From contig JAUFOQ010000003.1 in assembly GCA_040285855.1 (NCBI GenBank), forward strand, positions 868,001 through 932,000: DNA of 64,000 nucleotides, read 5' to 3'. Positions 26,937-64,000 of this stretch are shown in pieces (the first letter of the stretch is position 1; every line of letters starts with the position of its first letter). Position numbers and translations under genes: made by a program. The notes beneath the pieces were generated by a model, which was not told the origin of the DNA, searched no databases, and was given only the letters and a program-made list of their open reading frames with translations. This DNA comes from Eukaryota sp. GEM-RC1. Its lineage: Eukaryota.

Positions 26937-27032
26937 AAGATGAAGCAATAAGTGACACGGTGTCACTGACACGTCCTCCATAGTGGTCATCACTTCGTTT
27001 TGGTTGAACAATTTTATCTTCCTCCAGCTCTA

Positions 27033-34376: not shown

Positions 34377-34803
34377 ATAACGTGCTATAACAATCATGCA
34401 ATATTTGGTGATAACATTGAGTCTCCATGCAGGAGACTTTTAGATATTTAATTACAGTCAATAACAGGTATTTCGTGCACGATTACTTGTTCATTATCAA
34501 AATTGTAATTTTCAGTTAACGCAAAAATATCTTCCATAACTGAAAGAGACTGCTGACCTTCAAAAAGCACATAAAGTTTCTACGTAAGGCAATGGGTTTT
34601 TGAAGAAGTTCAACACATGTTGGATATGTCATTCTTCTATGCCACTTCAAGGAATTTGGGTAAATTTCTACTGTTTCACGTACAAACAACCTAAGACTAT
34701 AAACGAAACCCCCATTCAACACGTGTTGAGGTAACTCCGAACAAAGACAAAAACCCAAATTTCTTCACAACTTTGCTCACATCTCTTTTGAAGTTCTTTC
34801 CTG

Positions 34804-37275: not shown

Positions 37276-39042
37276 TTAAAATTGATAATTAAACAGTCTG
37301 CTAAATACATCTTCCTCAAACATTTTGACAGTCTCGTGGTAAAGATTTAGAACTGAACTCACTGCTTCCACTTCCTCTTCATCTATTCCCTGCACTATAT
37401 CAACAACACTAACAGACAGCTGACATATCAAATCATACACTTCATCAACATCACGTAAATACAACGGAATCAACACCGCACAAGACTGAAGAGCAAGGGA
37501 AAACTCAGGTAGAAACTCTTTCAGAAACTCCACAACTCTCTCTTCTTCCTCTTTAGAACTTCCCTTAATAGAACGAAGCTTCCCACAAGAAACTTTGACT
37601 ATGGATCTACAAGTGGAGAATCTATGGAAGTTGACAACTGATAGGCAAATGTTATAAGCGTTGGATTTTGTTGACGATTGTTGATCCCCAGGTGATTCAA
37701 CAATCAAATCAGTCTTGTACTTTCCTAAATCATTCATTAACAAACTAAACTGCTGGAGAGCATATAGATTAGCATTAACTTCATCACAATACCCATTCAA
37801 AAACTCCTGGGCTTCTTTAATGGTCTCGACACAACAAGTAACTGCCATAGTACCAACTGATTGGAAATCAACAGTCGAACAAACTCCATGTAGATGTTCC
37901 AGTAGTGATGAAGTGGCAATAATAACAGGATGACGTGGCAGAACGTCATTAGAAAGTCCAACAAGAACTGATGGATATCGATCGTTGACGTTGGCTGGTA
38001 TTCTACTAAGTGACACGTGGATCTCTCGGTGAGCATAGTAGACAGCCTTCTCCTTACAAAATGAAGAGAGATCTCGTAGGGAGGGAAGGAGATGGGATTT
38101 GAGGATACTGTAGGAGTTGTAGCGGGCCATAGCTTCTACTAGTACTTTGAAACATTGGCAGAAACTATCGCAAGAAGAGTAGCTTTTTAAGGATTTTGAT
38201 AGAATTTGGAGAAGGTCAATGTATTTTTTAAATATTGGACTTGATAGATATTCTAAATCTGAAACTGAAGGTCCAAAATTACTCTGAGCCAAGTTGAATT
38301 CTGAGTTGATCTTGTGAGATAGTAGAGAGAGTGTAGATGCAGTTAGATAAGAAGGTTTGTTGTCAGTGGAAACGATTCGTAGAACTTCTTTCTTTGTGGT
38401 AAAGAAATCTCCAGAATTCAAGCGGAATTTGACGTACTGGTCTAATAGTTCTTTGAGATAAGAACGAGCAGCAGGTCTTCCAGCAAGTAGAGAAGAGAAG
38501 TCGGCAAGAGAGGAAGAGAGAGGAGAAGCTGATGAAAGACGAGAAATACAGGCAGAGGCTTGATAAAAGACATGTCGGTAAGCTCTGGAGAGGTATTGTT
38601 GATATGTATTGAGATAAGATTCAGCTGAATGAAGAGACTTGTTTGCAGAGAAGAAAGCTACACATTCTTCACATCGTTGCATGAAAAGTTTGTATTCAGA
38701 AAGAGAACACGGTAGTTGAGTGTTGCTGTCGTGATGAAATATAGGAGCAAGTCTTTCAGCATCAGTATAGAAGAGACGTATTTCGAGAATACGGTGTTTT
38801 AAAGCAACAAGATGGTCTTTTTGAGAAATGATAGGTAAACATTGGTGTTGGAGGGTGGACAGTGTGCTGTACATATCTGTGTAGCAAGAATTTAACGAAG
38901 AAAGTTTTTGCCAAGCGTTTGAACAATCATGAGACGCAGAAGACAGATAATTCTTCCGTGATTGTAGCTGAGTAATAGCATGTGCTAAGCCCGTAGAAAG
39001 CGACGGAGGGACTACATGAAGGTTGGGGGAAGAAGAAGACAT
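37276..39042 (-). CDS. COG3: Conserved oligomeric Golgi complex subunit 3 (Sec34)-like
   Basis: FMQRCEECVAFFSANKSLHSAESYLNTYQQYLSRA matches the Sec34 pattern L..LDECI.Y...NP.Y..S..YL..F.QCL.RA. Also HPVI...LLEHL..VCSTVDFQSV...AV..C and NLYALQQFSLL. Start taken at the first ATG (MSSSSP). Confidence 0.7.
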   Translation of the reverse strand: MSSSSPNLHVVPPSLSTGLAHAITQLQSRKNYLSSASHDCSNAWQKLSSLNSCYTDMYSTLSTLQHQCLPIISQKDHLVALKHRILEIRLFYTDAERLAPIFHHDSNTQLPCSLSEYKLFMQRCEECVAFFSANKSLHSAESYLNTYQQYLSRAYRHVFYQASACISRLSSASPLSSSLADFSSLLAGRPAARSYLKELLDQYVKFRLNSGDFFTTKKEVLRIVSTDNKPSYLTASTLSLLSHKINSEFNLAQSNFGPSVSDLEYLSSPIFKKYIDLLQILSKSLKSYSSCDSFCQCFKVLVEAMARYNSYSILKSHLLPSLRDLSSFCKEKAVYYAHREIHVSLSRIPANVNDRYPSVLVGLSNDVLPRHPVIIATSSLLEHLHGVCSTVDFQSVGTMAVTCCVETIKEAQEFLNGYCDEVNANLYALQQFSLLMNDLGKYKTDLIVESPGDQQSSTKSNAYNICLSVVNFHRFSTCRSIVKVSCGKLRSIKGSSKEEEERVVEFLKEFLPEFSLALQSCAVLIPLYLRDVDEVYDLICQLSVSVVDIVQGIDEEEVEAVSSVLNLYHETVKMFEEDVFSRLFNYQF

Positions 39043-39118: not shown

Positions 39119-42100
39119 ATGACGCGTTTGACTTCTGCCGTGTTAATGCTTGTGCTGTTTACCTTATGTCTTGCCAATGACGTTCATTTTGTTCCTCCAG
39201 ATCCTCCTGATTCCACCGATCTCCTTTGGACTCGATCTGATCTCTGGACTCCTTCTCTTCCTACTGAAACTTCTAATGTCTACATTGATGGGAGTCAACT
39301 AGAGTCCTCTATCATTGTTAACAATGATGACGTCATCATCAACTCTCTTTACCTCACCAAAGTCGTTATTTCTATTGATTGTTCTTCTATCACAGTCAAT
39401 GGTTTCACTTCCGTCATTGATTCTTCCATTGATTCTACTTGTGATATCCGATCAGAGTTTACTTCACTTACTTATGAGTTTATTGGTGTTACAAAGTTGT
39501 CTGGTGTTAATCTAATTATTTTGGAGTTTGGAAAATTGATAGAACCACATTTAACTCTTGTCAATTCTAAAATAATTGTTAAAGAAGGTGCCACTTTAGT
39601 TGTTGATCAAAGTGACACGTCATCACCACTCATAGCTTGGGGCAATGGAGGACTAGGAAGAACTGGAACTGGTAATCAAGGTACTCATGGTCTTATGCCA
39701 GTCAATACTCAGCAGAGGTTTGCCTCGGTTTCCACCGGTGATTTTCACTCCTTAGGAGTCACTAGAGACGGCTTTCTCTACTCATGGGGGTCTAACAAAG
39801 AAGGGGATCCGAGAGCAGCGGGTCAACTTGGCTTGGGCGATGATGTTAATCGTCTTGTTCCAACAAAAGTAGATCTTTCCAATGTTGTCCAAGCTTCTGT
39901 TGGTAGCTGGCATAGTCTCGTTAGACTGAAAAATGGTGACGTTTACTCGTTTGGACGTGCAGGTGAAGGTCAACTCGGACATGGCAACACACACACCGAC
40001 GAACTATTTCCAAAAAAAAATTGATGACCTTTCAAATGTTGTTGATATTTCTGCTGGATCAATGAGTTCTTTAGCTGTGTTATCGAATGGAGAAGTGAAA
40101 GCTTGGGGTTATAACCCACACGGTGCCCTTGGAACAGGTTTAACTACTTCTCGTATCTTATCTCCCCAACGAGTTGTCATTAATCAACGAGTTAAGAAAG
40201 TCAATGGCGGTTATTACCACTCTCTTTTCATAACAGAAAGTGGTGAGTTATTTGCTGCTGGACGAAATCAATACGGAGAGCTTTGTGTTGGTGACACTGA
40301 TTCAAGAAATCTTCCTGTTCCTATTGTTAACTCTAAAGATTTCCATGTTATTCAAGCTAGACCTGGTAACTCTGCTTACACCTGGGAGCACATAACCACG
40401 ATTTTCCTCACTACTCAAGGTGAGGTATTCTCATGTGGTAGAGCTATTGGCCGATCTACCGATACAGTTCCAGCTCATTCCCCAGGAAAAGTTGAAGATA
40501 TGGGTGTGGTTTCAAGCATAACTAAAGGTTTTGATGCTGATAATAATGCCTTGTCGACGGATGGGGTTCTGTTTAGTTGGTCAAGTCGATCTGGTGCCCC
40601 CATCTTACCTTCTCCTGTTACTGAAACTTCTAAATTAAAGGTTGGTAAAGTGTATTCTGGATCATTTCATTGGTTTGTCCAAGAAACTATCAATACTGAT
40701 ATTTCCGGAAATGACGACTCTTCTATAGAAATTGCAGGAAAATTGGAGAACCGCCTTGAATTTCCTCTATTGTTCAATGTTTCAATCAGTATTCCTTGTA
40801 CCGGGGTTCTGTCGTCATATCGGTCACTCAAATTCAACACAAGTCTGGATAATTCTGGGATAATCAAAGTTGACGATTTTCTTCAATTGGACTCCTCTGT
40901 AGTCTTGGCCTTAAATGGTGGTAGTCTTGAAGCTAAACATGTTGTTGTTCAACAATATGCTTCAGTAACAGGCCGTGGATCAATTTTTTCAACTGTTTTT
41001 AATTACGGCACCATTAAACCAACTGGTGTACTTGAAATTCAAAAGGACTTGGTAATTGCTCAAAATTCGAATGTTTTATTAAGCTATAACAATAACACTC
41101 AATTAATTGTTAAAGGAATTCTTTCTGTAAATGGATCCTTTGTTTTTACTTTTCCCAATTCAATTCCTTCTAATTATACCATTTCTTTAGTTCTATTTGG
41201 TTCTTTACTTTCTGAACATGACTCATTTAAAGTGCAATGTGATCAGTATTTTGACTTGTTTTTGACGATTCTTCTATCAGCGTGTTAACAATTCACGATT
41301 TTCCGGGCCATGTTATTGAATCAGGCCAATGTCCCTCACCATTAAAGAATGTTGTTTACCTTGTCGTTCCCCTGAATAATTCCAATGATATTCTTTGGTC
41401 AAGAAATGATATCTGGGTACCATCTCCTCCTAATGAGAATTCCACTGTAATTATAGATGGTAATTATATTAATCAAGTTGTGTTTATTGACCAAAACGTC
41501 ATCATCAAATCTCTTCACCTCACAAATGTCGTCATTTCCATCGATTGTTCTTCAATTACAGTCAATGGTTTCACTTCCTTCATTGATTCTTCCATTGAAT
41601 CTACTTGTGATAATCGATCAGAGTTTACTTCACTTACATATGAGTTTATTGGTGTTACAAAGTTGTCTGGTATTAATCTAATTGTTTTGGAGTTTGGAAA
41701 ATTAATAGAACCACAGTTAACTCTTGTCGATGCTAAAGTAATTGTTAAAGAAGATGCCACAGTAGTTATTGATCAAAAGAAACGTCATCACCACTCTTAG
41801 CTTGGGGTAATGGAGAAGATGGTAGAACTGGAACTGGTAATCAAGATAGTCATGGTCTTATACCGGTCAATACAGATCAGATGTTTGCTTCAGTTGCTGC
41901 CGGTAAAGCACACTCTTTGGGAGTCACTAGAGATGGTTTTCTCTACTCATGGGGAGCTAATTCCTTGTCTGATCTTGGTGATACTGGTCAACTTGGCTTG
42001 GGAGATGCTGACAACAGACTAGTTCCAACTAAAGTAAATCTCACTAATGTTGTTCAAGCTTCTGCTGGATATGCTCATAGTCTCGTTAGACTAGAAAATG

Positions 42101-45100
42101 GTGACGTTTACTCTTTTGGAGCTTCACTTTTTGGTCAACTTGGACATGATAGTACTTCTCCTAATCAGTATTTTCCTCAAAAATTGAATCTCTTTCTAAT
42201 GTTGCTTCTGTTTCTGCTGGGTATGGCCATTCTTTAGCACTGTTGTCTAGCGGAGAAGCCAAGGCTTGGGGTTATAATGAATACGGTCAGCTTGGCATTG
42301 GATCATCAGGTTTTTCTGCCGGCAAGTCCTCTCCTCATTTAGTTACTTTTAACTTACCAGTCAAGAAAGTTGTAGCATGTTTCGAACACTCCTTTTTCCT
42401 TACTGAAAGTGGTGAGCTATTTGCTACAGGTAGGAATGACAATGGTCAGCTTTGTGTTGGAGATACCAATGACAGAAATAGTCCTACTCCCATTGTTAAC
42501 TCCAAAGATTTCCACGTGGTTCAAGTAAGTTGTGGTAGAAGTTCTTCAATCTTTTGACTTCCCAAGGTAACGTTTATTCTTGTGGTCAAATTCTAGGTAG
42601 ATCTACCAGTACAATTCCTGCTCATTCACCTGGGAAAGTTGAAAGATTGAAAAGGACTACCAGTATTCATAGCAGTTCAGAGATCATGTTTGCAGTTTCA
42701 CTAACTCGAATTTTGTATAGTTGGACTAAGACAAACTTACCTTCTGTTACAACTGAAACTATTGGCCTTGAGGTTGGTAAAGTCTTTGTTGGATATGATC
42801 ATTTTTTCATTGAAAGTATGGTTCAGTCTAATATCACTGGTGAAGGTTCTATTTTAGAAATTGAAGGAGAATTGTCAATCAATCTTGAACTACCTATGGT
42901 CCTCAACACTTCAATTATTGTTCATGCTTCTGGCAGATTCTTCTCTTTATATTCAGAAATGAGGTTGACAAAATCAATCGCAAACTCTGGAATGGTTAAA
43001 ATTGAGGGTCTTTTTGAAATTGACTCCACATCTACCTTGATTTTAATTGGTGGAACTGTTGAAGCTGATGATTGCTTCATCTCAGAGTTTGCTTCAATTA
43101 CAGGCTATGGATTAATTAATTCCATTGTTTTTAATTATGGAACATTTAATCTATCTGGTTTACTTGAAATTCAAAAAGACTTGGTAATTGCTCAAATTTC
43201 GAATGTTGTATTCAGCTATAACAACAATGAAACTCAATTGATTGTTAAAGGAGTTCTTTCTGTAAAAGGTATGTGTGTCTTTACTTTTCCCAATTCAATT
43301 CCTTCTAATTATACCATTTCTTTAATTCTATTTGGCTCTTTACTTTCTGAACATGACTCATTCAAAGTGCAATGTGATCAGTATTTTGACTTGTTTTTGA
43401 TGATTCTTCTATCAGCGTGGTAACTACCCTAGACTATCCAGGAATTGATCCTGTTTCAGGTCAGTGTCCTTTACCAGTAGTTGATCCTACCAGTCTAAAT
43501 CTACCTCTCAATAATTCTAATGATATTCTTTGGTCAAGAAATGATATCTGGGTACCATCTCCTCCTAATGAGAATTCCACTGTAATTATAGATGGTAATT
43601 ATATTAATCAAGTTGTATTCATTGATCAAAACGTCATCATCAACTCTCTTTACCTCACCGAAGTCGTTATTTCCCTTGATTGTTCTTCAATCACAGTCAA
43701 TGGTTTAACTTTCTTCATTGATTCTTCCATTGAATCTACTTGTGATACTGGATCAGAGTTTACTTCACTTACCTATGAGTTTATTGGTGTTACAAAGTTG
43801 TCTGGTATTAATCTAATTGTTTTGGAGTTTGGAAAATTAATAGAACCACAGTTAACTCTTGTCAATTCTAAAGTAATTGTTAAAGAAAATGCCACTTTAA
43901 TTGTTGATCAAAATCACACTTCATCATCACTCTTAGCTTATGGAGAAGATGGGAAAACGGGCTCTTTTAGTGAAAAGAACTTAAATACGAATAGCCATTC
44001 TAACCATTTGCTTGGAAAAGAACTGATAGAGTATAGTATTTCCGGAAATGATGACTCACATATTGAAATTGAAGGAACACTGCAAGTAGAAACAAATATT
44101 GAATCTTATTTGATTTTAGATATCTCAGTCGATGTTCTTTCTACCGGCCATCTTGTTTGCTCTTTTCCAGGTATTAAACTTAGAAATATCATTACCGTTT
44201 TGGGAGCAATCAAAACTGATGGTTCCCTTGATTTTGACTCATCGTCTACTTTTATTCTCAATGGAGGGACTGTCGAAGCCCATAACTTCTTCATTTCAGA
44301 ATTTTCTTCTATTTCTGGCATTGGTTATATTGATTCTACTGTTTTCAATTATGGAACCATTGAACCCTCTGGTGAAATTGAAATTGAAAATGATTTATTA
44401 TTGTATCCTAGCTCGAAATTAATATTCAATAACAAGGACTCCAACAACAAGTTCTTACATATTAAAGGAACAATCATTTTTAGTGGAAGCTTGATTCTTG
44501 ATTTTTTTAATCACCGTCACTGGTCTGGTCGCCTCAATCTAAATGATTCATTTACTTTGTTAATTTACGAAGAAAGAAACGCTGAGTTTAACACGATTTC
44601 AATCAATTGTGAGTCTCTTTTGAAATTACTCAAACTGAAAGCTCTCTTTCTATTGTTGTTGTCTCAGAATTTCCAGAATTTACTAGTACTGATGAACTTA
44701 TTTGCCCAACAGAGGAGGATCCAAATAATCCCAAAGACCCGGAGCCAATTGATCCCGACCCCGAAGATTCTAAGAAGCAACAGATTCTGCCTTTTACCGT
44801 AGATTTTAAATTTGTCTTTTTCCTTATGATTTCACTGATCATACTTGTTCTAATCGGATGGTGTCTCCTTTTCCGAAAGCAGAAGACTTCCGCTGATTTC
44901 AATCCTTCAAATCTTCTTCCTCTTAAGAAGAATCCCATCTTTTCTGAAACTATTACAAGTACTCAAGACAAAATCCTGGAAAACACGTATTCTATTAAAT
45001 CTCCTCAAGTTAACCACCAATCAGTAGTTTCCTCCCTTTGCAGTACCATCTCAAACATGAAAGATGACTTAGCTGAATGGGAACCACAGCAGTACATTGA

Positions 45101-46955
45101 GTCAATAACTGCACCAATTCTTGACACTCTGACTCTTCTTACTTCTTCTTCTTCAGTTTTTTCTCCGATTGGAATGGCTCTGGGCACGTTGTTTACCTCA
45201 ATCAAAAACGTCAAGATCAATAAAACTCAAGCTGCAGTTCTTGGAGCTAGAGTTTTAAGACTAACAAAGCTTACTCTGTCTCAATTAGAAACTAACATGG
45301 AACTGGCAGAGTCACCAATGTTCTCTGAACTTTTGAAAAATTTCACAAATATTTGTAATCGAGTTAATACCGTGGTTACACAACATGACGATGCTCAATG
45401 GTTTAAGCGAACATTTACTCATGAAAAATTCAAAAGAGAATTTGAAATGTGTAACAAACTTTTGGATGATTTTTCATCAGAGTTGCTAATTGCTTTTGCT
45501 GGAAAGACTTTTGAAAAGTTGCCACCTTTATCCCAACAAAAGGTCGATGCAATCATTGACTTCGATCAAGAAGAATTCCATTCATCACTGGCCAATCACA
45601 ATCAAATTTTATTGAAAGAAATGCGTTTAGAATTCCGAGAGTTACAAAAACAAATCTCGTCTGCTACTGAAAAGTCTATTAAAGCTGCTCTTGAAGAACA
45701 ACAACAACTTCATACAGAACAACGTAAAGCTCTTCAAAACCAAATATTAGAAAATCAAACAACAAAAGAAATTCAATCAAATATTTCTGCAGTTGAATTA
45801 GAAATTGATTGGGAAACTTCCCTATTTAGTGGTCAATCTGAAGTCGTTCATGCTGAATATGCTCTTAGTGAAGTTGTTGTTAAACTGTATTATAGTACTG
45901 GTAAAATTAGTCCAGAGCTTGCAAGAGAATTCTCCATTTTAAGTTCTCTCCCCAATGTTCCTTCATTACCCAGAATTTATGGTCTTACTTTGGTACTAAA
46001 GAATGGCAAGGAACGCTATGGTCTTGTAATGGAACGACTATCAAGTGTAACTCTAAAGGACAAAATTTCAAAAATCAAAACTGAAAACAAAAAGCTTGAT
46101 GTGTTAATTAGTATAGCTAATGCTTTGGTATCTTGCCACGAGTCAAAGTTCCTTCATCGAGATCTAAAACCAGACAATATTCTGTTTAGAGGTGCTTGTC
46201 CAGTGATTATTGATTGGGGAAGTGGTAAACATATTGGAAATTCAAATATGTCATTATCTTTAAATTCTAATAGAGTTTTGACTCCCAATTGGGCTAGTCC
46301 TGAGCTCGTTTCAGATGACACCGTCTACGCTGATTCGATTGACGTTTTCTCATTTGCTTTGATTGCAGTCTATGTGTTCACAGAGGAATCAATTTGGCAA
46401 GACTTTGAAGGATTTCCTAATAGAGATCAACTGATTATTGAATCACTCAGAACTGGTGATATTCCTGATATTCCCCATCACTCTGGTCTTCCCACTGCTC
46501 TCTTACCTCTTCTACGTCAATGTCTCCAGTTTAAATACACTGAACGTCCAAACATGCAACAAGTTGTTTCAATTCTATCAGCGTTTAGACACAAGAGTTC
46601 TCCAGTAGATTGTCTTAATCTAGGGAATATTTACCTTTGTGATTATGGATTGACTTTGATTGACAAGGAATATGTTCAAAATGGACCGCTTGAAGTTTGT
46701 TTGGAGATTTATTCCAAAATCTCTCTATTATTAGAGTTTTGTTACTCTCAAGATCTCAGCAGCAAGTTTTCTCTGGTATTAGATTTAATTGAAGGTCTAC
46801 ATGAGATTCCTTCTGCTCTAGTTGAAAGAAAGAAGCGTATTGATAGACTTTTGAGTCGCCGGTTCACTCTTCAGGCAGCAATTCCAGTATTTGATTTGAA
46901 TGTTCCTCAAGAACCTGAACAACTAGATGTTGTTGTTGAACGTTTTTCTTCGTAG
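39119..46955 (+). CDS. Receptor A: signal peptide, 3 ectodomain modules (2 with RCC1 propellers), TM helix, MLKL-like four-helix bundle, coiled coil, protein kinase (~2600 aa reconstructed across 7 single-base frame breaks)
   Basis: Signal MTRLTSAVLMLVLFTLCLA. G8-like W..W.P..P...V.IDG starts. RCC1 repeats (SAG..HSL...G.VY.WG.N..GQLG.G). TM FVFFLMISLIILVLIGWCLLF then RKQK. VKINKTQAAVLGARVLRL...WFKRTFTHEKFKREFEMCNKLLDD. Kinase VVVK, HRDLKPDNIL, IIDWG, TPNWASPE, DVFSFA. Breaks at ~40015, 41260, 41777, 42181, 42554, 43396, 44619. Confidence 0.75.
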
Positions 46956-47149: not shown

Positions 47150-47836
47150 GATCTGGTAACTACCACAGTATTTGAACCATCCCATCAATAGACAGTCCCT
47201 CAGAAGTCGTTGAATCAACAATAATTAAATCGGTCAACTCATTAAATGAAAACGACCAGTCTCAAATGGTTGTCAATTTACTTCAATTAAGAGTTTCAAT
47301 AGAGCTACTGATAAAAGCATTGTCAAAAATTGACAGAAGTCAACCCATTATCAAAGAAAGAACCAACTGTGGTAATCTCAACTCCATTAACACTGTATTT
47401 TTGGTTAAATCACTAGTTAATGTTCCAGAAACAAGGAAAGTCTTTGAAGTGGATGAACGGAGGACTATGAAAAGCAGAGCAATTAAGATAAACAGAATAA
47501 GACAAGTGGCAGTCGTAGCTATACAAGTATCTCGTTTACCCTTAAACTTCTTCAAAAAATGAAGAACGATATTCCACTTCAGGCTCTGCTTTAATAAACA
47601 ATACAACATTTTCACTAGATTCGGCCTTTGCATTTAAATCATTGGTGATACTATCTAGTTTCTGACCATCAGAAGTAGTACCATGATTTGATTGAACAGG
47701 AGTATCATTTTGGTCAAGTCCATGTTCACAACTAACAAAGGATTTAGTGGAAGGATCAATTGTGATAGCTGGTTGGTGGATATCATTGATGAGAAGACAT
47801 TGAACTTTCAATTGAATGGGGTCAGTTTTCTCTCAT
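47150..47836 (-). pseudogene. Fragmented type II membrane protein gene of unknown family
   Basis: Consecutive minus-strand ORFs (47542-47811, 47340-47633) with a hydrophobic CLILFILIALLFIVL segment, broken by frameshifts and stops. Confidence 0.35.
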
Positions 47837-47897
47837 TTTCTAACACTAACTTATGTCAATAAGTATGTACTAGGGTTAGCAACTGCTACGCCTAAGT

Positions 47898-48470
47898 AGA
47901 AAATCTCCAGAATTCAAGCGGAATTTGATGTATTGGTCTAGCAATTCTTTGAGGTAAGAACGAGCAGCAGGTCTTCCAGCAAGTAGAGAAGAGAAGTCAG
48001 CAAGAGAGGAAGAGAGAGGAGAAGCTGATGGAAGACGAGAAATACAGGCAGAGGCTTGATAAAAGACATGTCGGTAAGCTCTGGAGAGGTATTGTTGATA
48101 TGTATTGAGATAAGAGTCAGCTGAATGAAGAGACTTGTTTGCCAGTAGAAAGCTGCACATTCTTCACAACGTTCCAGGAAAAGCTTATATTCAGAAAGAG
48201 AGCACGATAATTGAGTGTTGCTGTCGTGATGAAATATAGGAGCAACAAGATGATCTTTTGGAGAAATGATAAGGAAACATTGATGTTGTAGAGTTCACAT
48301 CGTACTGAAAATATCTGTGTATCATGAGATCAACGAAGAAAGTTTTGCCAAGCATTTGAACAATCATAAGAGGCAGAAGACAAATAACTTTTCCGTGTCT
48401 GTAACTGAGATATTGTATCTGCTAGGCCGGTAGAAAGTGAATGAGAGGTTACATGGAGGGGTTGGGTTCA
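47898..48470 (-). pseudogene. Decayed 5' fragment of COG3 co-duplicated with the receptor gene
   Basis: Aligns with ~38404-39050 (ANKSLHSADSYLNTYQQYLSRAYRHV...). It has internal deletions and the COG3 ATG segment is missing. Confidence 0.88.
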
Positions 48471-48537
48471 AAAATCGAATTTCTGTGGTACTTTTTTTCC
48501 TTTAAAAGAACTCTCTCGTCTTTAAGTGTTGTCTTCA

Positions 48538-51500
48538 ATGACACGTTTAAGTTCTGCAGTGTTAATTCTTTTGCTGGCCACCTTATGTCTTGCTAATGAC
48601 GTTCATTTTGTTCCTCCTGATCCTCCTGATTCTACCGATCTCCTTTGGACTCGGTCTGATCTCTGGACTCCTTCTCCTCCTACTGAAACTTCCAATGTCT
48701 ACATTGATGGGAGTCAACTAGAGTCCTCTATCCTTGTGAACAATGATGACGTCATCATAAACACTCTTTACCTTACCAATGTCGTTCTTTCTCTTGATTG
48801 TTCTGCAATCACAGTCAATGGTTTCACTTCCTTTATTGATTCTTCCATTGAGTCTACTTGTGATATTCGATCAGAACTTACTTCACTTACCTATGAGTTT
48901 ATTGGTGTTACAATGTTGTCTGGTATTAATCTAATTGTTTTGGAGTTTGGAAAATTCGTAGAACCACAGTTAACTCTTGTCAATTCTAAAGTAATTGTTA
49001 AAGAAGATGCTACTTTAATTGTGGATCAAAGCGACACGTCATCACCACTCATAGCTTGGGGTAATGGAGAAGATGGGAAAACGGGAACTGGGCATCAAGG
49101 TACTCATGGTCTTATGCTAGTTAATACTCAACAGCAGTTTATTTCAGTTTCTGCTAGTGAAGTACATAATCTAGGTGTTACTAGAGATGGTTTCCTCTAC
49201 TCGTGGGGACAGAACTCTAAAGGACAACTTGGTTTAGGGGATACTACCAATAGATTAGTACCAACAAAGGTAGGGTTATCGAATGTTGTCCAAGCTTCTG
49301 CTGGTTTTGAGTACAGTCTTGTTAGACTAGGAAATGGTGACGTTTACTCCTTTGGAGGAGCTGGATGGAGTGGAAGACTTGGACATGGATCTTGGTCCAT
49401 AGATGAATATTTTCCTAGAAGAATTGAATCTCTTTCTAATGTTGTTGACATCTCTGCTGGATATTCACACTCACTGGCAGTAATGTCTAATGGAGAAGCA
49501 AAAGCCTGGGGATCTGGTACACATGGTAGACTCGGTACTGGGTCTTCGTCGTCCAGCTCTCCTCAGACAGTTCTTATCAACTTCTCTGTCAAGAAAGTCA
49601 GGGCAGGATATGATCACTCTATGTTCCTTACTGAAAGTGGTGAGCTATTTGCTTCAGGTTATAATTATAATGGTCAGCTTTGTGTTGGTGATACCACTAA
49701 TAGAAATGTCCCTACTCCTATTGTTAACTCTAAAGATTTCCACGTGATTCAAGTCAGTATCGGTAAAACCTTGAGTACCCGGACAACCATCTTCCTTACT
49801 ACTCAAGGTGAGGTGTTCTCATGTGGTAGAGCTATTGGCCGAACTACTGATACTGTTCCAGCTCATTCCCCAGGAAAAATTGAAGATATGGGTGTGGTTT
49901 CAAGAATTTCGTGTGGTGATTATGATGTTTTTGCTTTGGCGACTGGTGGGACCTTGTATAGTTGGTCACGTTGGTCCAATCGCTTTCCTTCTCCTGTTCC
50001 TGAAACTTCTGAATTAAAGGTTGGTAAAGTGTATTCTGGATCATATCATTGGTTTGTCCACGAAACTGTTGATACTGATATTTCCGGAGATGACGACTCT
50101 TCTATAGAAATTGCAGGAAAATTGGAAAACCGCCTTGAATTTCCTCTATTGTTCAATACTTCACTCATCATCCATTCTACTGGTGATCTATCATCAATTC
50201 AAAGCGTGAAGTTTGCAAAAAGACTGAGAAATTCAGGTACAATCACAATTGATGGTCTACTTGAATTTGACTCATCTTCAGTTATTTCTCTCTTAGGTGG
50301 CAGTATTAAAGCTAAAGATATTATATTTCAAGAATTTGCTTCTATTACAGGCTATGGATTGATCTATTCTACTGTTTTTAATTATGCAACAATTATTCCT
50401 TGCGGTGTACTTGAAATTCAAAAAGACTTGGTAGTGGCTCCCAATTCCAGGGTTTTACTAAACTATAACAACAATGAAGTCCAATTGGTTATTAAAGGAG
50501 TTCTTTCTGTAAATGGAACTATTGCTCTAAATGCTACTCGTCACCCTTCATCTGTTCACTTCTCTGTCTCTTTAGTTCTCTTTGGTTCATTGATTTCAGA
50601 GTATGCATCATTTCCTGTTTACTGCGATCACTACTTTGGCGTGTTTTTTGATGATTCTTTTTATCAGCGTGGTAACTACCCAAGACTATCCAGGTCCTGT
50701 CAATGTTTCAGGTCAATGTCCTTCACCAGCAGATAATCCATTCTATCTTGTCGTTCCCCTTAATAATTCTAATGGTATTCTTTGGTCAAGAAATGATATC
50801 TGGGTACCATCTCCTCCTAATGAAAATTCCACTGTAATTATAGATGGTAATTATATTAATCAAGTTGTATTTATTGACCAAACCGTCATCATCAACTCTC
50901 TTTACCTCACCAATGTCGTTATTTCTCTTGATTGTTCTTCAGTCACAGTCAATGGTTTCACTTCCTTCATTGATTCTTCTATTGAATCTACTTGTGATAT
51001 TCGATCAGAGTTTACTTCACTTACCTATGTGTTTATTGGTGTTACAAAGTTGTCTGGAATTAATCTAATTGTTTTGGAGTTTGGAAAATTAATAGAACCA
51101 CAGTTAACCCTTGTCAATTCTAAAGTAATTGTCGAAGAAGACGTTATGTTTATTGTTGACCAAAGTGACAAATCACTCATAGCTTGGGGTAATGGAAAAG
51201 ATGGAAAAACAGGAACTGGTAACCAAGGTCATCATGGTCTTATGTTAGTTCATACCGATAGGAAATTTCTTTCAGTTACCGCTGGTAAAGCACACTCTCT
51301 AGGAGTTACAAGAGACGGTTTTCTCTACTCTTGGGGAACAAACTTTGTGACTAACTTTGGTGAAACTGGCCAACTTGGCTTGGGAGATGCTGACAGTCGT
51401 ATGGCTCCCACAAAAATTAATTTGACCAGTGTTGTCCAAGCGTCTGCTGGTTATGGTCATAGTCTTGTTAGAGTAGAAAATGGTGACGTTTACTCTTTTG

Positions 51501-54500
51501 GAGCTTCACTTTTTGGTCAACTTGGACATGATAATACTTATCCCAATCAATATTTTCCTAAAAAAATTGAGTCTCTTTCTAATGTTGCTTCTGTTTCTGC
51601 TGGGTACGGACATTCTTTAGCACTTTTGTCTACCGGAGAAGCCAAGGCTTGGGGTTATAATGAATACGGTCAGCTTGGTATTGGATCATCAGGTTTTTCT
51701 GCCGGTAAGTCCTCTCCTCATCATGTGGCTCTTAACTTCCCTATCAAGAAAGCTGTAGCATGTTTTGAACACTCATTTTTCCTCACTGAAAGTGGTGAGC
51801 TATTTGCTACAGGTAGGAATCATCATGGTCAGCTTTGTGTTGGAGATATCAATAACAGAAATAGTCCTACTCCCATTGTTAACTCTAAAGATTTCCACGT
51901 GGTTGAAGTAAGTTGTGGTAAAAGGTCTTCTATCTTTTGACTTACCAAGGTAACGTTTATTCTTGTGGTCAGATACTAGGTAGATCTACCAGTACAGTTG
52001 CTGCTCATTCTCCTGGGAAAGTTGAATTGTTGGAGAATATCATGAGTATTTCTAGTGGGTACAGTACACATATCACGTCATCAGTGTCTGGCACCTTATT
52101 TAGTTGGTCTGACAACAATCTACCTGCTCCTAATTTGAATACTCTCGAGTTTACGGTAAGAAAGCCAGTTGCAGGTTCTGATTACTTCTTTATCCAGGAA
52201 ATGATTTCGTCGGATATTATTGGAGATGAAAACTCTGTTATTGATATTGAAGGTACGTTTACTGTTCTTGATGTGTTCCCTTTGAATTTTGCTTCTTCAT
52301 GTACAATTCGTTCTACTGGAAGTCTTTTGTTCTCCTATTATGGAATGAAAATATTAAAAAATGTTGAAACTGATGGAACAATGCACGTTGATGGTCTTCT
52401 TGAATTTGACTCGTCATCTACTTTGATTCTAAATGGTGGCATTGTAAAATCTAATGATGTAATAGTTCATGAATTCGCTTCTATTATTGGTAATGGATTA
52501 ATCAATTCTAATGTTGTAAATTTGGGAACAATTATTCCTTCTGGTGTACTTAAAATTCAAAATGATTTGGTAATTGCTCAAAATTCGAATGTCTCATCAA
52601 CATATAACAACAACACTCAATTGATTGTTAACGGAATTCTTTCTGTAAATGGACTGTTTGTTTTTACTTTTCCCAATTCAATTCCTTCTAATTATACCAT
52701 TTCTTTAGTTCTATTTGGCTCTTTACTTTCTGAACATGACTCATTCAAAGTTCAATGTGATCAGTATTTTGACTTGTTTTTGATGATTCTTCTATCAGCG
52801 TGGTAACTACCCAAGACTATCCAGGAATTGATCCTGTTTCAGGTCAATGTCTTTTGCCTTTAGATCCCAATGTTTATCTTGTTGTTCCCCTTAATAATTC
52901 TAATGATATTATTTGGTCAAGAAATGATATCTGGGTACCATCTCCTCCTAATGAGAATTCCACTGTAATTATAGATGGTAATTATATTAATCAAGTTGTA
53001 TTTATTGACCAAAACGTCATCATCAACTCTCTTTACCTCACCAATGTCGTTCTTTCTCTTGATTGTTGTTCAATCACAGTCAATGGTTTCACTTCCTTCA
53101 TTGATTCTTCCATTGAATCTACTTGCGATATTCGATCAGAGTTTACTTCATTTACCTATGAGTTAATTGGTGTTACAAAGATGTCTGGTATTAATCTAAT
53201 TGTTTTGGAGTTTGGAAAATTAATAGAACCACAGTTAATTCTTGTCAATTCTAAAGTAATTGTTATAGAAGATGCTAGATTAATTGTAGATCAAAGTGAC
53301 ATTATTCAATCTAATATTTCTGGAAATGAGCATTCTGATTTTCAAATTGAAGGCACGTTCGAAACTCGTCATACATTGCCTTTGGTTTTGGATACACATG
53401 TTTCTATTTCTTCAACCGGAACTCTTTTGGCTTTTTTCAATGGCCTTAAAGTTGGAAAATCAATGGAGAATTCTGGAGTAATCAGTGTTAGTGGTCTTCT
53501 TGAATTTGACTCGCCATCTACTTTGATTCTGAATGGTGGCAGTGTTAAAGCTAAGAATGTAACAGTTCAAGAATTGGCTTCAATTACAGGCTTTGGATTA
53601 ATCAATTCCACTGTTGTTAATTATGGAAAAATTATTCCTTCTGGTTTACTTGAAATTCAGAAGGATTTTGTAATTGCTGAACATTCTAGTGTTTTATTAA
53701 ACTATAACAACAATGAAACTCAATTGATTGTTGACGGAATTCTTTCTGTTAATGGATCTTTTGTTTTTACTTTTCCCAATTCAATTCCTTCTAATTATAC
53801 CTTTTCTTTAGTTCTATTTGGATCTTTACTTTCTGAACATGACTCATTCAAAGTTCAATGTGATCAGTATTTTGACTTGTTTTTGACGATTCTTCTATCA
53901 GCGTGGTAACTACCCAAGACTATCCAGGTCCTGTCAATGTTTCAGGTCAATGTCCTTCACCAGTAGATAATCCTTTCTATTTTGTCGTTCCCCTTAATAA
54001 TTCTAATGATATTCTTTGGTCAAGAAATGATATCTGGGTACCATCTCCTCCTAATGAGAATTCCACTGTAATTATAGATGGTAATTATATTAATCAAGTT
54101 GTATTTATTGAACTAACCGTCGTCATCAACACTCTTTACCTCACCAATGTCGTTCTTTCTCTTGATTGTTCTTCAATCACAGTCAATGGTTTCACTTCCT
54201 TCATTGATTCTTCCATTGAATCTACTTGCGATATTCGATCAGAGTTTACTTCATTTACCTATGAGTTAATTGGTGTTACAAAGATGTCTGGTATTAATCT
54301 AATTGTTTTGGAGTTTGGAAAATTAATAGAACCACAGTTAATTCTTGTCAATTCTAAAGTAATTGTTACAGAAGATGCCACTTTAATTGTTGACCAAAGT
54401 GACATTATTCAATCCAATATTTCTGGAAATGGGCATTCTGTTATTCAAATTGAAGGTTTATTCGAAACTCGTGATACATTGCCTTTGGTTTTGGATACAG

Positions 54501-57500
54501 ATGTTTCTATTTCTTCAACCGGAACTCTCTTATCTTTGTTCAATGGCCTAAAAGTTGGTAAATCAATGGAGAATTCTGGAGTAATCAGTGTTGATGGTCT
54601 TCTTGAATTTGACTCATCATCTACTTTAATTCTTAATGGTGGCAGTGTTAAAGCTGAGAATGTAATAGTTCAAGAATCTACTTCAATTACAGGCTATGGC
54701 TTAATCAATTCAACTGTTTTTAATTATGGAACAATTATTCCTTCTGGCGAACTTGAAATTCAAAATGACTTGGTAGTTGCTCAACACTCGAATGTTTTAT
54801 TAAGCTATAACAACAACACTCAGTTGATTGTTAACGGAATTCTTTCTTTAAATGGATCCTTTGTTTTTGCTTTTCCCAATTCAATTCCTTCTAATTATAC
54901 CATTTCTTTAGTTCTATTTGGTTCTTTACTTTCTGAACATGACTCATTCAAAGTTCAATGTGATCACTACTTTGGCGTGTTTTTGACGATTCTTCTATCA
55001 GCGTGGTAACTACCCAACAATATCCAGGTCTTGTCAATGTTTCAGGTCAATGTCCTTCACCAGTTGTTAATCCTTTCTATCTAGTTGTTCCCCTTAATAA
55101 TTCTAATGATATTCTTTGGTCAAGAAATGATATCTGGGTACCATCTCCTCCTAATGAGAATTCCACTGTAATTATAGATGGTAATTATATTAATCAAGTT
55201 GTATTTATCGACCAAAACGTCATCATCAACTCTCTTTACCTCACCAATGTCGTTCTTTCTCTTGATTGTTCTTCAATCACAGTCAATAGTTTCACTTCCT
55301 TCATTGATTCTTCCATTGAATCTACTTGCGATATTCGATCAGAGTTTACTGCATTTACCTATGAGTTAATTCGTGTTACAAAGATGTCTGGTATTAATCT
55401 AATTATTTTGGAGTTTGGAAAATTAATAGAACCACAGTTAATTCTTGTCAATTCTAAAGTAATTGTTACAGAAGATGCCACTTTAATTGTTGACCAAAGT
55501 GACATTACTCAATCTAATATTTCTGGAAATGGGCATTCTGTTATTCAAATTGAAGGTTTATTCGAAACTCGTGATACATTGCCTTTGGTTTTGGATACAG
55601 ATGTTTCTATTTCTTCAACCGGAACTCTCTTATCTTTGTTCAATGGCCTTAAAGTAGGAAAATCAATGGAGAGTTCTGGAGTAATTAGTGTTGATGGTCT
55701 TCTTGAATTTGACTCATCATCTACTTTAATTCTTAATGGTGGCAGTGTTAAAGCTAAGAATGTAATAGTTCAAGAATCTACTTCTATTACAGGCTTTGGA
55801 TTAATCAATTCCACTGTTGTTAATTATGGAACAATCATTCCTTCTGGTGTACTTGAAATTCACAAAGACTTGGTAGTTGCTCAACATTCGAATGTTTTAT
55901 TAACCTATAACAACAACACTCAATTAATTGTTAAAGGAATTCTTTCTGTAAATGGATCCTTTGTTTTTACTTTTCCCAATTCAATTCCTTCTAATTATTC
56001 CATTTCTTTAGTTATATTTGGCTCTGTACTTTCTGAACATGACTCATTCAAAGTTCAATGTGATCAGTATTTTGACTTGTTTTTGGACGATTCTTCTATC
56101 AGTGTGGTAACTACCCTAGACTATCCAGGGATTGATCCTGTTTCAGGTCAGTGTCCTTTACCATTAGATACCAATGTTTACCTTGTTGTTCCCCTTAATA
56201 ATTCTAATGATATTCTTTGGTCAAGAAATGATATCTGGGTACCATCTCCTCCTAATGAGAATTCCACTGTAATTATAGATGGTAATTATATTAATCAAGT
56301 TGTATTTATCGACCAAAACGTCATCATCAACTCTCTTTACCTCACCAATGTCGTTCTTTCTCTTGATTGTTCTGCAATCACAGTCAATGGTTTCACTTCC
56401 TTCATTGAATCTTCCATTGAATCTTCTTGTGATACTCGCTCAGAGTTTACTTCACTTACCTATGAGTTTATTGGTGTTACAAAGTTGTCTGGTATTAATC
56501 TAATTGTTTTGGAGTTTGGAAAATTAATAGAACCACAGCTAATTCTTTTCAATTCTAAAATAATTGTTAAAGAAGATGCTAGATTAATTGTTGACCAAAG
56601 TGACATTATTCAATCTAATATCTCTGGAAATGGGCATTCTGCTATTCAAATTAAAGGTTTATTCGAAACTCGTGATACATTGCCTTTGGTTTTGGATACA
56701 GATGTTTCTATTTCTTCAACAGGAACTCTCTTGGCTTTTTTCAGTGGTCTAAAAGTTGGAAAATCAATGGAGAGTTCTGGAGTAATCAGTGTTAATGGTT
56801 TACTTGAATTTGACTCGTCATCTACTTTGATTCTTAATGGTGGTAGTGTTAAAGTTAAGAATGTAATAGTTCAAGAATTGGCTTCAATTACAGGCTTTGG
56901 ATTAATCAATTCTACTGTTCTTAATTATGGAACAATTAAACCTTCTGGTTTACTTGAAATTCAGAAGGATTTTGTAATTGCTGAACATTCTAGTGTTTTA
57001 TTAAACTATAACAACAATAACACTCAATTAATTGTTAACGGAATTCTTTCTGTAAATGGATCCTTTGTTTTTGCTTTTCATAATTCAATTCTTTCCAATT
57101 TTACCTTTTCTTTAGTTCTATTTGGCTCTTTATATTCTGAACATGACTCATTCAAAGTTCAATGTGATAAGTATTTTGACTTGTTTTTGATGATTCTTCT
57201 ATCAGCGTGGTAACTACCCAAGACTATCCAGGAATTGATCCTGTTTCAGGTCAATGTCTTTTACCAGTAGTTAATCCTACTAATCTAGACCTACCTCCTA
57301 ATAATACTAGAGACATTCGCTGGTCAAGAAATGATATCTGGGTACCATCTCCTCCTAATGAGAATTCCGCTATAATTATAGATGGTAAAAACATTAATCA
57401 AGTTGTATTCATTGACCAAAACGTCAACATCAACTCTCTTTCCCTCACCAATGTCGTTATTTCTCTTGATTGTTCTACAATCACAGTCAATGGTTTCACT

Positions 57501-58847
57501 TCCTTTATTGATTCTTCCTTTGAGTCTACTTGTGATATTCCATCAGAGTTTACTTCACTTTCTTATGAGATTATTGGTGTTACAAAGTTGTCTGGAATTA
57601 ATCTAAATGTTTTGGAGTTTGGAAAATAATAGAACCACAGTTAAATTTTGTCAATTCTAAAGTAAATGTTAAAAAAGATGCTAGATTAATTGTTGGCCAA
57701 AGGGATAGGTCTTCACCACTCTTAGCTTGGGGTAATGGAAAAGATGGAATAACAGAAGCTCTTAGAACGAAGAACTTAAAAACGAATACCCATTCTAATC
57801 AGTTACTTGAAGAAGTGTTGATGGAATATAGTATTTCTGGAAATGATGACTCTCATATTGAAATCGAAGGAACTTTGGACGTAGAAAACAATTTTGAATC
57901 TTATTTACTTTTAGATATTTCAGTCGATGTTCTTTCGTCTGGTTCTTTAATATGCTCTTTTCCAGGTATTAAACTAGTAAATACTATTACCGTTTTGGGA
58001 GCAATCACAATTGATGGTTTTCTTGATTTTGACTCATCATCTACTTTTATTCTCAATGGAGGAACTGTCGAAGCCCATAACTTTTTCATTTCAGAATTTT
58101 CTTCTATTTCCGGCATTGGTTATATTAATTCTACTGTTTTCAATTATGGAACCATTGAACCTTCTAGTGAAATTGAAATTCAAAATGATTTAATACTGTA
58201 CCCTAGTTCGAAATTAATGTTTAGTAACAAGGAATCCAACAGCCAGTTCTTACGTGTTAAAGGAACAATCATTTTTAATGGAAGCTTGAGTATTGATTTC
58301 TTCAATCACCACCTCAATCTAAATGATTCGTTTACTTTGTTTTATTTTGAAAAAGGAAATGCTGAGTTTAGCTCTATTTCAATCAATTGTGAGTCTCTTT
58401 TGAAATTACTCAAACTGAAAGCTCTCTTTCTCTTGTTGTTGTCTCAGAATTTCCAGAATTGACTAATGGTGAACTTATTTGCCCAGCATCCGTAGATCCT
58501 AAAGACCCAAAGGAACAACTTAAGTCCACCTTCGATTTCAAATTTGTAGTCTTCATAACGAGTTCAATTATTATAGTTGTTTTAGTCGCATGGTTTTTAT
58601 TGTGTCGAAAAAGCAAAAATCATCAGATTTAAATCCAGTAATTCTTCTCGACCTAAAGAAAAAACCCAAGATCTTTACTGAATATACGCCAAGATTTGAC
58701 TCCAAAGTCCTTGCTCTCGTTGAAAGAAAGAAGCGTATTGATAGACTTTTGATTCAAAGGGCTGCTCTTAAGGAAGAAATTTCAGTAATTGATTTGAATA
58801 TTGCAGACGAACCCCAACAGGATGTTGTTATTGAAAGTTACAATTGA
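48538..58847 (+). CDS. Receptor B: paralogue with 7 ectodomain modules (2 with RCC1 propellers), TM helix and short tail; no MLKL or kinase domain (~3400 aa reconstructed across ~9 single-base frame breaks)
   Basis: Signal MTRLSSAVLILLLATLCLA and modules homologous to receptor A. TM FVVFITSSIIIVVLVAWFLL. Tail KQKSSDLNPVILLDLKKKP...ALVERKKRIDRLL...DVVIESYN*. Confidence 0.72.
52800..57206 (+). repeat. Four tandem ~1.10-kb coding repeats (propeller-less stalk modules)
   Basis: VTTQDYPG...GQCP...SEHDSFKVQCD units start at ~52800, 53903, 55003 and 56104. Confidence 0.92.
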
Positions 58848-63200: not shown

Positions 63201-63680
63201 CTGATAGGGAATCAGGAATTTTAGGCAAATCAAAATTTGGACAAACTTTCTGATTTTTTCGGTGACCTAATTGACCACAAGAAGAACAGTTAGGTAGAGC
63301 TCTTTTTCGAATTTGCTGAGAAGCAGGGATCACAACTTCAGGAGAAGATTTGATGGAAGTAGAAGCAGCGTTAGACTCAGAAAAGACCTCAGAAGTAGAA
63401 GAAGTTTTAGAGGGAACAAAAGTGGGATTAGAAGAACAAAGAGGCAAAGAACTTGGCAACTCAACTGGACGTGAAGCTAGAACCTTATTGACAAGAGGGC
63501 TAACAGGAAATACAGACTGTGAAACACGAGACATAGAATCACCAGAAGAAGAAAGATGACTTACGGAAAGAGCAGAAGAGGGAGTCACAGAAGATTTACT
63601 GCTAACCAGAGAAATCCGAGTAAATGGACGCACAAGTGGAGCTGAAGGACGACTTAGAGCAAAGATGGAGTACCCGCAAG
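60234..63680 (-). mobile_element. Non-LTR retrotransposon, CRE/SLACS-like clade (Zn knuckle, RT, restriction-like endonuclease), probably 5'-truncated
   Basis: CSSCGQLGHRKNQKVC, KAPGPSGI, RPIAVGE, LDFKNAFNSVKR, GVKQGDPLGP, AYMDD, CKCG...HLLSC, IHDAVRD and RRADVIV...VVDV. Stop at 60284-60286; poly(A) at 60234-60243. About seven one-base homopolymer deletions split one ORF. Confidence 0.9.
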
Positions 63681-64000
63681 CTTAGCCGCAATGCATGGTG
63701 ACATTCTTGGTGTCCTGTAACTTGGTTTATTAGGAAGACAATATTCCAAAGAATTTGTCACATGTCAGAGATTTTATTTGAAATGATTTGCTCCACCAAG
63801 ATCTCTCTTCTTTATAATCTACAGTACACTATACCCAACAGTGTTATTGATTATAACTCGTGTTCCAAAGAGCTCTATATATCAACGTGTCCTGGAGATC
63901 TTTCCGAAACTGCAACCGATCCATTTCTTCACTGAAATGAAATGATTGTATCAATACTTTCTTTCCAAAGTTGTTGAAGGATCAAATATAATGTAACTTT

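Follow-up and report, generated by a model that had tools for sequence, protein, structure and literature searches.

That receptor kinases can give rise to receptor-like proteins by losing the kinase is textbook knowledge, and the products of such losses, together with proteins that join a helical bundle to a kinase, form the background to the two genes considered here. Plant PDLPs are derived from cysteine-rich receptor-like kinases (PMC6368629), and TRAIL-R4/DcR2 is a decoy receptor with a truncated death domain, which shares the ligand and the complex of the signalling receptor (PMC3204462). In animals, plants and fungi, proteins with a bundle, a brace and a kinase include MLKL (4btf), the HeLo/HELL-kinase proteins (PMC12881547) and wheat Pm13 (PMC10951266); in HeLo and RPW8-type domains it is a free N-terminal helix that is used on membranes (PMC12881547). 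Protist single-pass transmembrane kinases, as far as the main text of their survey goes (PMC10463195), recombine lineage-specific ectodomains with a conserved kinase, and that text has no occurrence of MLKL, RCC1, metamonad, Giardia or Trichomonas.

The host of the locus is a free-living, anaerobic and bacterivorous flagellate of the metamonads, and the window, i.e., the whole 64,000-nucleotide stretch that was analysed, carries two neighbouring genes, A and B, on the forward strand. Gene A (39119..46955) has 2,613 codons and no internal stop with its frame breaks masked; the breaks number seven, each of one base and all within A/T runs of 4–9, and pieces of the gene are matched at 100% by the gene models P0014, P0011 and P0008. 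Its product is predicted to be a single-pass receptor with, in order, a signal peptide, three ectodomain units (39227..44801; A1 39227–41395, A2 41396–43530 and the terminal unit A3 43531–44801), one transmembrane helix (44811..44876, from hydropathy and the AlphaFold model), an MLKL-like helical bundle with a brace/coiled region (45015..45755), a kinase (45768..46601, from Pfam, the family alignment and structure comparison) and a post-kinase helical domain (46590..46880). Two of the three units carry an RCC1 domain (~39614–40700 in A1, ~41782–42832 in A2). The Pfam MLKL_N match (45189–45539) reaches 32.6 bits, above the cut-off of 27, and the Pkinase match 100 bits. The family of A is like the surveyed protist kinases (PMC10463195, main text) in recombining lineage-specific ectodomains with a conserved kinase.

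As in MLKL and the HeLo/HELL-kinase proteins (4btf; PMC12881547 and PMC10951266), a four-helix bundle, a brace and a kinase fold follow one another in A, according to Pfam and structural comparison. The top Foldseek match of the cytoplasmic model is full-length MLKL (4btf; E 8.8e-13, 505 columns, rmsd 20), and region 181–657 of the model aligns with it at Z 18.5 (348 aligned, rmsd 14.4); searched by sequence alone against PDB chains, the bundle had no significant match. Unlike animal MLKL, A keeps its catalytic residues, and would thus not be a pseudokinase, and has an extra helical domain after the kinase. The catalytic lysine, HRD and DWG (for DFG) are all present and the glycine loop is degenerate; all eight aligned family proteins retain the lysine, HRD and the aspartate of DWG. 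The bundle stands at a free N-terminus in the gene models P0004–P0006, whereas in A it is preceded by the transmembrane helix and a linker of ~45 residues, and in P0003 by such a helix and a longer linker; tied in this way, the bundle of A has no free N-terminal helix of the HeLo/RPW8 type. The post-kinase domain has six predicted helices, aligns in eight of eight family proteins and was modelled from four sequences with a pLDDT of 82.8 and a pTM of 0.71. Foldseek gave no match for it at E ≤0.001, the best rows being generic helical domains at E of at least 0.4, which does not imply novelty, and the Atlas gave no usable match.

Gene B (48538..58847) shares its promoter region and signal peptide with A and comprises 3,438 codons, interrupted by nine one-base frame breaks, eight of them within A/T runs of 4–5. 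Seven ectodomain units follow the signal peptide: B1 and B2 (48646..52913; 48646–50782 and 50783–52913) with one RCC1 domain each, four tandem units of ~1.1 kb without RCC1 (B3–B6, 52914..57320) and a terminal unit, B7, the first half of which occupies 57321..57710. The four tandem units are absent from A and were not mentioned in the sequence-only reading; their feature matches to bacterial autotransporter-passenger clusters (0.83–0.90) are a lead only, along which they are likely to form a beta-helical stalk. A predicted transmembrane helix (58543..58605) leads into a cytoplasmic part of 78 residues, made up of a juxtamembrane segment (58611..58712) homologous to A 44877–44978 and a tail (58713..58847) of 13 codons of orphaned last helix and 31 further codons.

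At the junction 58712/58713, an interval of A (44979..46814) is missing from B, amounting to 612 codons in frame. The sequence-only reading had held that B keeps both flanks of A's cytoplasmic region in one frame, which is borne out at these places, and that it lacks precisely the MLKL and kinase part, ~600 residues; the size and the frame of the loss stand, but the precision does not. The 5' cut lies 12 residues ahead of the cassette's first predicted helix, and the 3' cut lies inside the post-kinase domain, ~75 folded residues of which were removed; it falls at the first residue of the last helix (46812–46880 in A), which alone is left, and whole. Since the deletion cut inside this predicted six-helix domain, the tail common to A and B is, on the structural model, the last helix with a floppy end and not a separate element. 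The earlier suggestion had been a dimerisation or sorting element; a motif scan of the B tail found no YxxPhi, [DE]xxxL[LI] or NPxY, and 0 of 158 candidates among longer proteins matched it at E 1 or better, which is weak evidence.

Read through its nine breaks, B is like plant PDLPs and RLPs (PMC6368629): it has a signal peptide, an ectodomain paralogous to that of a kinase-bearing receptor, one transmembrane helix, a short tail and a kinase lost secondarily, here too in a tandemly expanding receptor family. By contrast, its ectodomain and lineage are unrelated to theirs, the loss includes the MLKL-like bundle, and a recognisable piece of the cassette is kept. Similarly, B resembles TRAIL-R4 (PMC3204462) as a paralogue of a signalling receptor in which the signalling domain is absent or truncated and a truncated piece of a cytoplasmic helical domain is kept; by contrast, and on a comparison of sequences only, B's heads have diverged from those of A and its stalk is longer.

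Whether B was maintained can be judged against a neighbour that was not. The COG3 gene (37276..39042, reverse strand) lies head to head with A, and a co-duplicated 5' piece of it (~47899..48472, reverse strand) lies head to head with B. With two nonsense codons in 188 aligned codons, two one-base gaps, one 57-base gap and no 3' part, this piece reads as dead, in agreement with its earlier description as decayed; its dS from the COG3 gene is 0.29. An age for it much below that of B's 3' end was considered and dropped, as this dS is close to those of the signal peptide (0.31), the terminal unit (0.31) and the tail (0.30). B itself has no stop in 3,438 codons with its breaks masked, as had been noted earlier for its 10 kb, whereas the COG3 piece has its two in only 188 (Fisher p 0.003). 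When neutral drift was simulated at 0.02 changes per base, none of 200 copies of B remained stop-free (mean 7.2 stops), and at ~0.01 changes per base 5% did, so that B lacks the nonsense codons that an old pseudogene would have gathered at the neutral rate. The 343 codons unique to B's 3' end also have no stop; 4% of simulated copies kept them free of stops at 0.1 changes per base and 0.6% at 0.15, while the transmembrane, juxtamembrane and tail part alone stayed stop-free in 6–30% (at 0.28–0.1) and is too short for this test.

The tail adds a second line of evidence. Four of the seven distal residues that are invariant in five kinase-bearing sequences are changed in B, against none of four in the first 13 residues, and the kinase loss would accordingly be older than those changes. 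The stop counts and this release of the distal tail from kinase-linked constraint together indicate that B likely outlived its kinase and was maintained after the loss, in support of what the sequence-only reading had proposed. The dN/dS check that it had suggested is uninformative: pairwise values between A and B are 0.21–0.58 in most segments and 0.80 in the whole tail, and because the dead COG3 piece gives 0.24, a value below 1 proves nothing. In the second half of the terminal unit, B has the lowest count of unique residues, 4, where A has 15 and P0020 has 16, and this too favours maintenance.

Of the 16 frame breaks counted over both genes, 15 fall within A/T runs; these are likely to be errors of the assembly. 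Kinase-bearing A has run-associated breaks as well, single-copy IFT52 has two compensating ones, and one identical break recurs at seven linker copies, with one copy in frame. The source assembly combined R9.4 nanopore reads with short-read correction, and its complete BUSCO score is 58.4% for the genome against 71.3% for the transcriptome (PMC11316075). Real introns of ~30 bases occur in the organism, and a 35-base GT-AG interval, at which public gene models splice, spans five of the linker breaks. An intron is nevertheless the less likely account of them, as two copies have no GT, one copy in the window and one in P0009 stay in frame when read straight through, and the sequence so read can be aligned to the terminal linker with no gap. 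Programmed frameshifting was rejected, since the breaks are not at homologous positions, shift the frame both ways and occur in IFT52 too. In the assembly, a one-base break within the A5 run at 58610 separates the frame of B's juxtamembrane segment and tail from that of the transmembrane helix; were this break real, the tail would go untranslated.

The family survey, made in protein databases, bears on the direction of change. In eight of eight family proteins (three Skoliomonas species), the kinase is followed by the aligned tail, and P0003 of a sister species has the layout of A, with signal peptide, unit, RCC1, transmembrane helix, MLKL, kinase and tail, from which it follows that B represents a loss of the cassette. 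Four of 16 ectodomain relatives (P0016, P0021, P0022 and P0023, kinase-less gene models from error-prone assemblies) end in one transmembrane helix and a short tail, and three in ephrin-like and multi-transmembrane ends. Used as a query, the terminal unit of B matched 1 of 1,127 candidates, namely B's own piece.

At a probability of about 50%, B is a tandem copy of A with one in-frame deletion, likely kept under selection and likely a kinase-less, long-stalked surface binding protein. The single deletion would have taken the MLKL-like bundle, the kinase and most of the post-kinase domain, and B would have stayed functional long afterwards. Its two RCC1 heads may bind ligands other than those of A, probably prey or particle surfaces given their domain type and a bacterivorous cell, and the four added units may raise them to a greater distance from the membrane. 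The tail would be mostly a leftover, its basic helix of 13 residues perhaps retained as a membrane anchor or as a binding site for a partner. The opposite course, in which A arose by insertion of the cassette into a B-like gene, was offered earlier and is refuted for this pair by the survey. The cassette has been mobile over long times, as P0004–P0007 (four of the eight family proteins) carry it at the N-terminus or behind a GTPase with no A-type ectodomain and transmembrane helix ahead of it, and it must once have been fused to a transmembrane receptor; but the last helix of the cassette is itself present in B, near-identical to that of A, and the A layout predates the species split while dS between A and B is ~0.3 in several segments, which makes an insertion here most improbable. 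That B has been a pseudogene ever since the deletion, its repeats cleaned by gene conversion from working paralogues, is also improbable, if less so. Segments differ in dS, from 0.13 to ~1.0, which suggests that sequence has been exchanged, B's own contig carries close relatives of its units (P0009, P0010 and P0020), and the tail has the high ratio given above; conversion of this kind could purge stops from the repeats. Against it, stops are absent from the unique 3' codons too, all three gaps in the juxtamembrane and tail alignment are whole codons, and the four units were added in frame. A recent truncation in B7 of what had been a working kinase-less receptor, so that B would now be either a young pseudogene or an ectodomain that is secreted, is a tentative but more serious contender. 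The only break outside a base run, at 57627, gives an immediate stop that would, if real, end B ahead of the membrane, and it lies in a decay-like tract, the first half of B7, which looks unconstrained, with 15 non-synonymous to 1 synonymous private changes against 40 to 22 in the other nine units (Fisher p 0.03); death for up to ~0.01 changes per base is also compatible with the stop test. However, 12 of the 16 changes copy the adjacent base, compared with 26 of 62 elsewhere (p 0.025), a hint that the consensus is faulty at this spot; divergence does not speed up beyond the break, and the first half of A3 is likewise skewed (7:1).

A comparably tentative proposal would make B an inhibitory partner of A-type receptors in the manner of TRAIL-R4, joining their clusters, its retained helix pairing with or displacing the last helix of A's post-kinase domain and so damping the kinase/MLKL output. 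The cut that spares exactly this helix fits such a role, as do the promoter region and signal peptide shared with A, and a sister species holds kinase-bearing P0003 and kinase-less P0021, of one layout and 49% identical, on one contig. Moreover, the first 13 tail codons match A at 38 of 39 bases while the rest differ at 27 of 93 (Fisher p 0.0003; dN/dS of the last 31 codons 0.91), and gene conversion that happened to end at the junction would be an awkward explanation, although a short converted tract would account for the 13 codons without selection. On the other side, the two RCC1 heads are placed four units further out and have diverged from those of A, with indels in their loops and dN of 0.22 and 0.16, which speaks against a shared ligand; a single helix out of the six could not restore the post-kinase domain, and the conserved distal tail motif is lost. 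A true decoy role is thus unsupported, and the long-stalked binding protein is the likely reading of B.

For specialists, B alone is unsurprising; its value lies in a readable deletion scar, which dates the kinase loss before most of B's divergence and shows receptor-like proteins arising in this way in a free-living protist of a deep-branching lineage. Of the two genes, A is the odder, and the family around the pair matters more than B: across three Skoliomonas species, the MLKL-like bundle, kinase and helical domain are shuffled among membrane receptors, RCC1, multi-transmembrane and GTPase/Sel1 proteins. In the open-licence literature searched, neither a paper describing this family nor a report of MLKL-like proteins in the metamonad supergroup was found. 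It is a long shot that A acts as an all-in-one metamonad surface death receptor, in which ligand would cluster A and its own kinase would unlatch the tethered MLKL-like bundle, with B as a TRAIL-R4-like brake through its retained helix in A's post-kinase domain; if so, a receptor-to-pore switch would be contained in one chain, with a paired inhibitor. Should the tethered bundle of A act on membranes, the wiring of necroptosis-like modules would span a wider range.

Gene A (39119-46955, + strand) lies head to head with COG3, and gene B (48538-58847, +) lies head to head with a 5' piece of COG3. Pieces of gene A match the public Eukaryota sp. GEM-RC1 gene models P0008 and P0011 at 100%, and P0014 is the window's own gene-A model. 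The window is eukaryotic DNA, and the isolate is Skoliomonas sp. GEM-RC, a bacterivorous metamonad with a free-living habit; its published genome was assembled from R9.4 nanopore data and corrected with short reads (PMC11316075). Once one-base breaks are masked, A comprises 2,613 codons with seven breaks and B 3,438 codons with nine, both with 0 internal stops. Each begins with a signal peptide followed by copies of one repeated unit: three in A, two of which hold an RCC1 domain, and seven in B, of which the first two carry RCC1, the next four measure 1.1 kb and lack it, and the last is the terminal unit. Apart from RCC1, nothing in the unit matches Pfam significantly; its Atlas features weakly resemble (0.83-0.90) autotransporter passenger beta-helices, which is a lead only to a fold of that kind. 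In the terminal units of A (43933-44040, +) and B (57722-57830, +), only both ends of the RCC1 insert remain, and the insert is cleanly missing from the third to sixth B units (B3-B6); whole-module internal deletion is thus a habit of this receptor family. In A, the single transmembrane (TM) helix is followed by an MLKL_N domain (over the Pfam cut-off) and a kinase; the predicted model of this cytoplasmic part (pLDDT 68, pTM 0.44) has full-length MLKL (4btf) as its top Foldseek match, at an rmsd of 20, so the arrangement of the domains is unmatched.

A search with A's last open reading frame (ORF) scored 7,993 candidates and returned seven proteins; a cluster look-up supplied A's own model as the eighth. 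In all eight family proteins, the MLKL-like bundle, kinase, post-kinase domain and tail form one block, which is N-terminal in P0004-P0006, stands behind a small GTPase in P0007 and, in P0003 from a sister species, follows a signal peptide, unit, RCC1 and TM helix in the same order as in A. A clusters with P0001 and P0002 in the tree (support 100/99), which does not fix the deeper order. The MLKL-like bundle, kinase and unknown six-helix domain (44811-46955, +; P0001-P0007) form a mobile block shared by three Skoliomonas species, which sits downstream of a TM receptor, upstream of RCC1 or multi-TM ends, or after a small GTPase and ahead of Sel1 repeats. The sequence-only reading had allowed that A gained its MLKL-kinase by insertion; this alternative falls for this pair, because B holds the block's end and P0003 already has the A layout. 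B is a deletion product, since it carries the block's own end; the block was at one time fused to a receptor, but earlier than the species split, the direction of change (loss in B) is settled, and kinase loss is an ordinary process. An ectodomain search with two B units against 1.84 billion representatives (E 0.001 or better) yielded 16 proteins, 15 of which are 14 named Skoliomonas models and one piece of A. The TM-MLKL-kinase arrangement occurs in one of the 16 (P0003); four end in one TM helix and a short tail (P0016, P0021, P0022 and P0023), three finish in ephrin-like plus multi-TM regions, and the remaining eight, two being A's own, are anchorless fragments. P0021 shares one layout and one contig with P0003, at 49% identity. 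As several of these relatives are without a kinase, kinase-less proteins appear to be a regular part of the family, as represented by models from error-prone assemblies.

The flanks of A's cytoplasmic region had been described as kept in B in one frame, which the alignment bears out: the juxtamembrane segments align over 34 residues, after which B enters A's last 46 residues in frame, with A 44979-46814 (612 codons) missing. The companion statement, that B lacks precisely the MLKL bundle and kinase, holds only as far as both are missing; the 5' cut lies 12 residues ahead of the cassette's first predicted helix, and the 3' cut lies beyond the kinase, within the post-kinase domain, at the start of its last helix. 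This domain, ~97 residues past A's kinase, is predicted to be a separate fold of six helices (pLDDT 82.8, pTM 0.71, four sequences); the tail shared by A and B is thus an orphaned helix with a disordered end.

Among the one-base breaks, 15/16 fall within A/T runs of 4-9 bases, and their density in A is as high as in B; one is repeated in seven linker copies, and another linker copy reads through. The single-copy gene IFT52 (~34600-36228, +), an assembly-error control, carries two one-base breaks, both at T runs, that compensate each other; run-length spectra are similar in receptor and single-copy genes and so do not discriminate. A 35-base intron could account for five linker breaks. Two breaks are of consequence for B. 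The break at 58610 lies in an A5 run; if it is real, B would end a few residues past its TM helix, with the tail untranslated. That at 57627 lies outside any base run, in a tract whose private changes are 15 non-synonymous to 1 synonymous vs 40 to 22 across the nine remaining units (p 0.03 when counted strictly; 18 and 2 on a looser count). Real decay of this tract is possible, and the 12 of these 16 changes that copy an adjacent base (p 0.025) hint at a local consensus fault.

Elsewhere in the window, 1-19700 holds tandem ~1.7-kb units, ~99% identical, each with an MIF4G (eIF4G-like) ORF of 290-332 codons, a variation that assembly slips would give; retroelement-like pieces at 7210-9479 and 19689-20580 (-; weak integrase match, E 0.01) interrupt and end the array. 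A reverse-transcriptase element in several frames occupies 60259-63681 (-), and 650 bases of its end are repeated at 21213-21862 (94% identity). Likely GT-AG introns of ~30 bases occur in a threonine-synthase-like PALP gene (25723-27029, -) and an AZUL+HECT (UBE3A-like) ligase (~29200-31708, -); a BTB-domain gene (23362-25188, +) and a glycosyltransferase-61 gene (27700-28902, +) are also present. The interval ~47170-47860 (-), lying between gene A and the COG3 piece, is a stop-interrupted reading with a hydrophobic stretch, and the ORF opposite it has no Pfam match.

The proposed check by pairwise dN/dS between A and B was run and proved uninformative (0.21-0.80): the signal peptide gives 0.21, the TM helix 0.28, the juxtamembrane segment 0.47 and the tail 0.80, and the RCC1 domains and second halves range over 0.29-0.58, but the dead COG3 piece (47899-48472, -) gives 0.24, so this measure is unusable for judging B. 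In that piece, dS is 0.58 in the 5' part and 0.15 in the 3' part; it was probably long a working COG3 copy, or is a mosaic. The earlier observation that B has no nonsense codon while the COG3 fragment decayed stands, at 0 in 3,438 vs 2 in 188 codons (p 0.003), with the provisos that paralogue conversion is able to purge stops and that the TM-to-end part of B is by itself too short for significance. In a substitution-only simulation of B, stop-free copies were 0/200 at 0.02 changes per base and 5% at 0.01; the kinase loss predates this span, since seven distal-tail residues do not vary among five sequences that bear the kinase (two of them near-identical), and B has altered four of the seven, one by a three-base codon change. 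The second half of the terminal unit is not accelerated in B, where 4 residues are unique, against 15 in A and 16 in P0020, with polarised changes of 8 synonymous and 12 non-synonymous in B, 13 and 13 in A, and 27 ambiguous.

B most probably acts in binding at the cell surface. The RCC1 heads have diverged between the two proteins (dN 0.22 and 0.16, with loop indels), and those of B would be shifted outward by the four added units, for which reason capture or adhesion would fit better than side-by-side pairing with A; B would then operate in the manner of plant PDLPs, and of other such receptor-like proteins that arose by kinase loss (PMC6368629). TRAIL-R4 retains a stump of its signalling domain as B does (PMC3204462); a decoy is defined by shared ligand and inhibition, and such a role is rated for B at about one in five. 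The first 13 tail residues retain all four invariant positions, and their codons have 1/39 bases changed vs 27/93 in the remainder (p 0.0003); such unusual conservation is the one sign of a role for the tail, and a short tract of gene conversion would account for it as well. The tail helix of B is basic and amphipathic (hydrophobic moment 0.49) and might bind a membrane or a partner, the post-kinase domain of A being one candidate; a scan of the tail for canonical sorting motifs gave none, contrary to the suggested sorting element. A itself is like MLKL in fold order and differs by its retained catalytic residues; HeLo-type domains use a free N-terminal helix (PMC12881547), which A is without. 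The literature searches returned no description of an MLKL-kinase receptor like A, with 0 occurrences of MLKL in the Skoliomonas-mentioning papers listed, and this unstudied receptor family is the part worth following.
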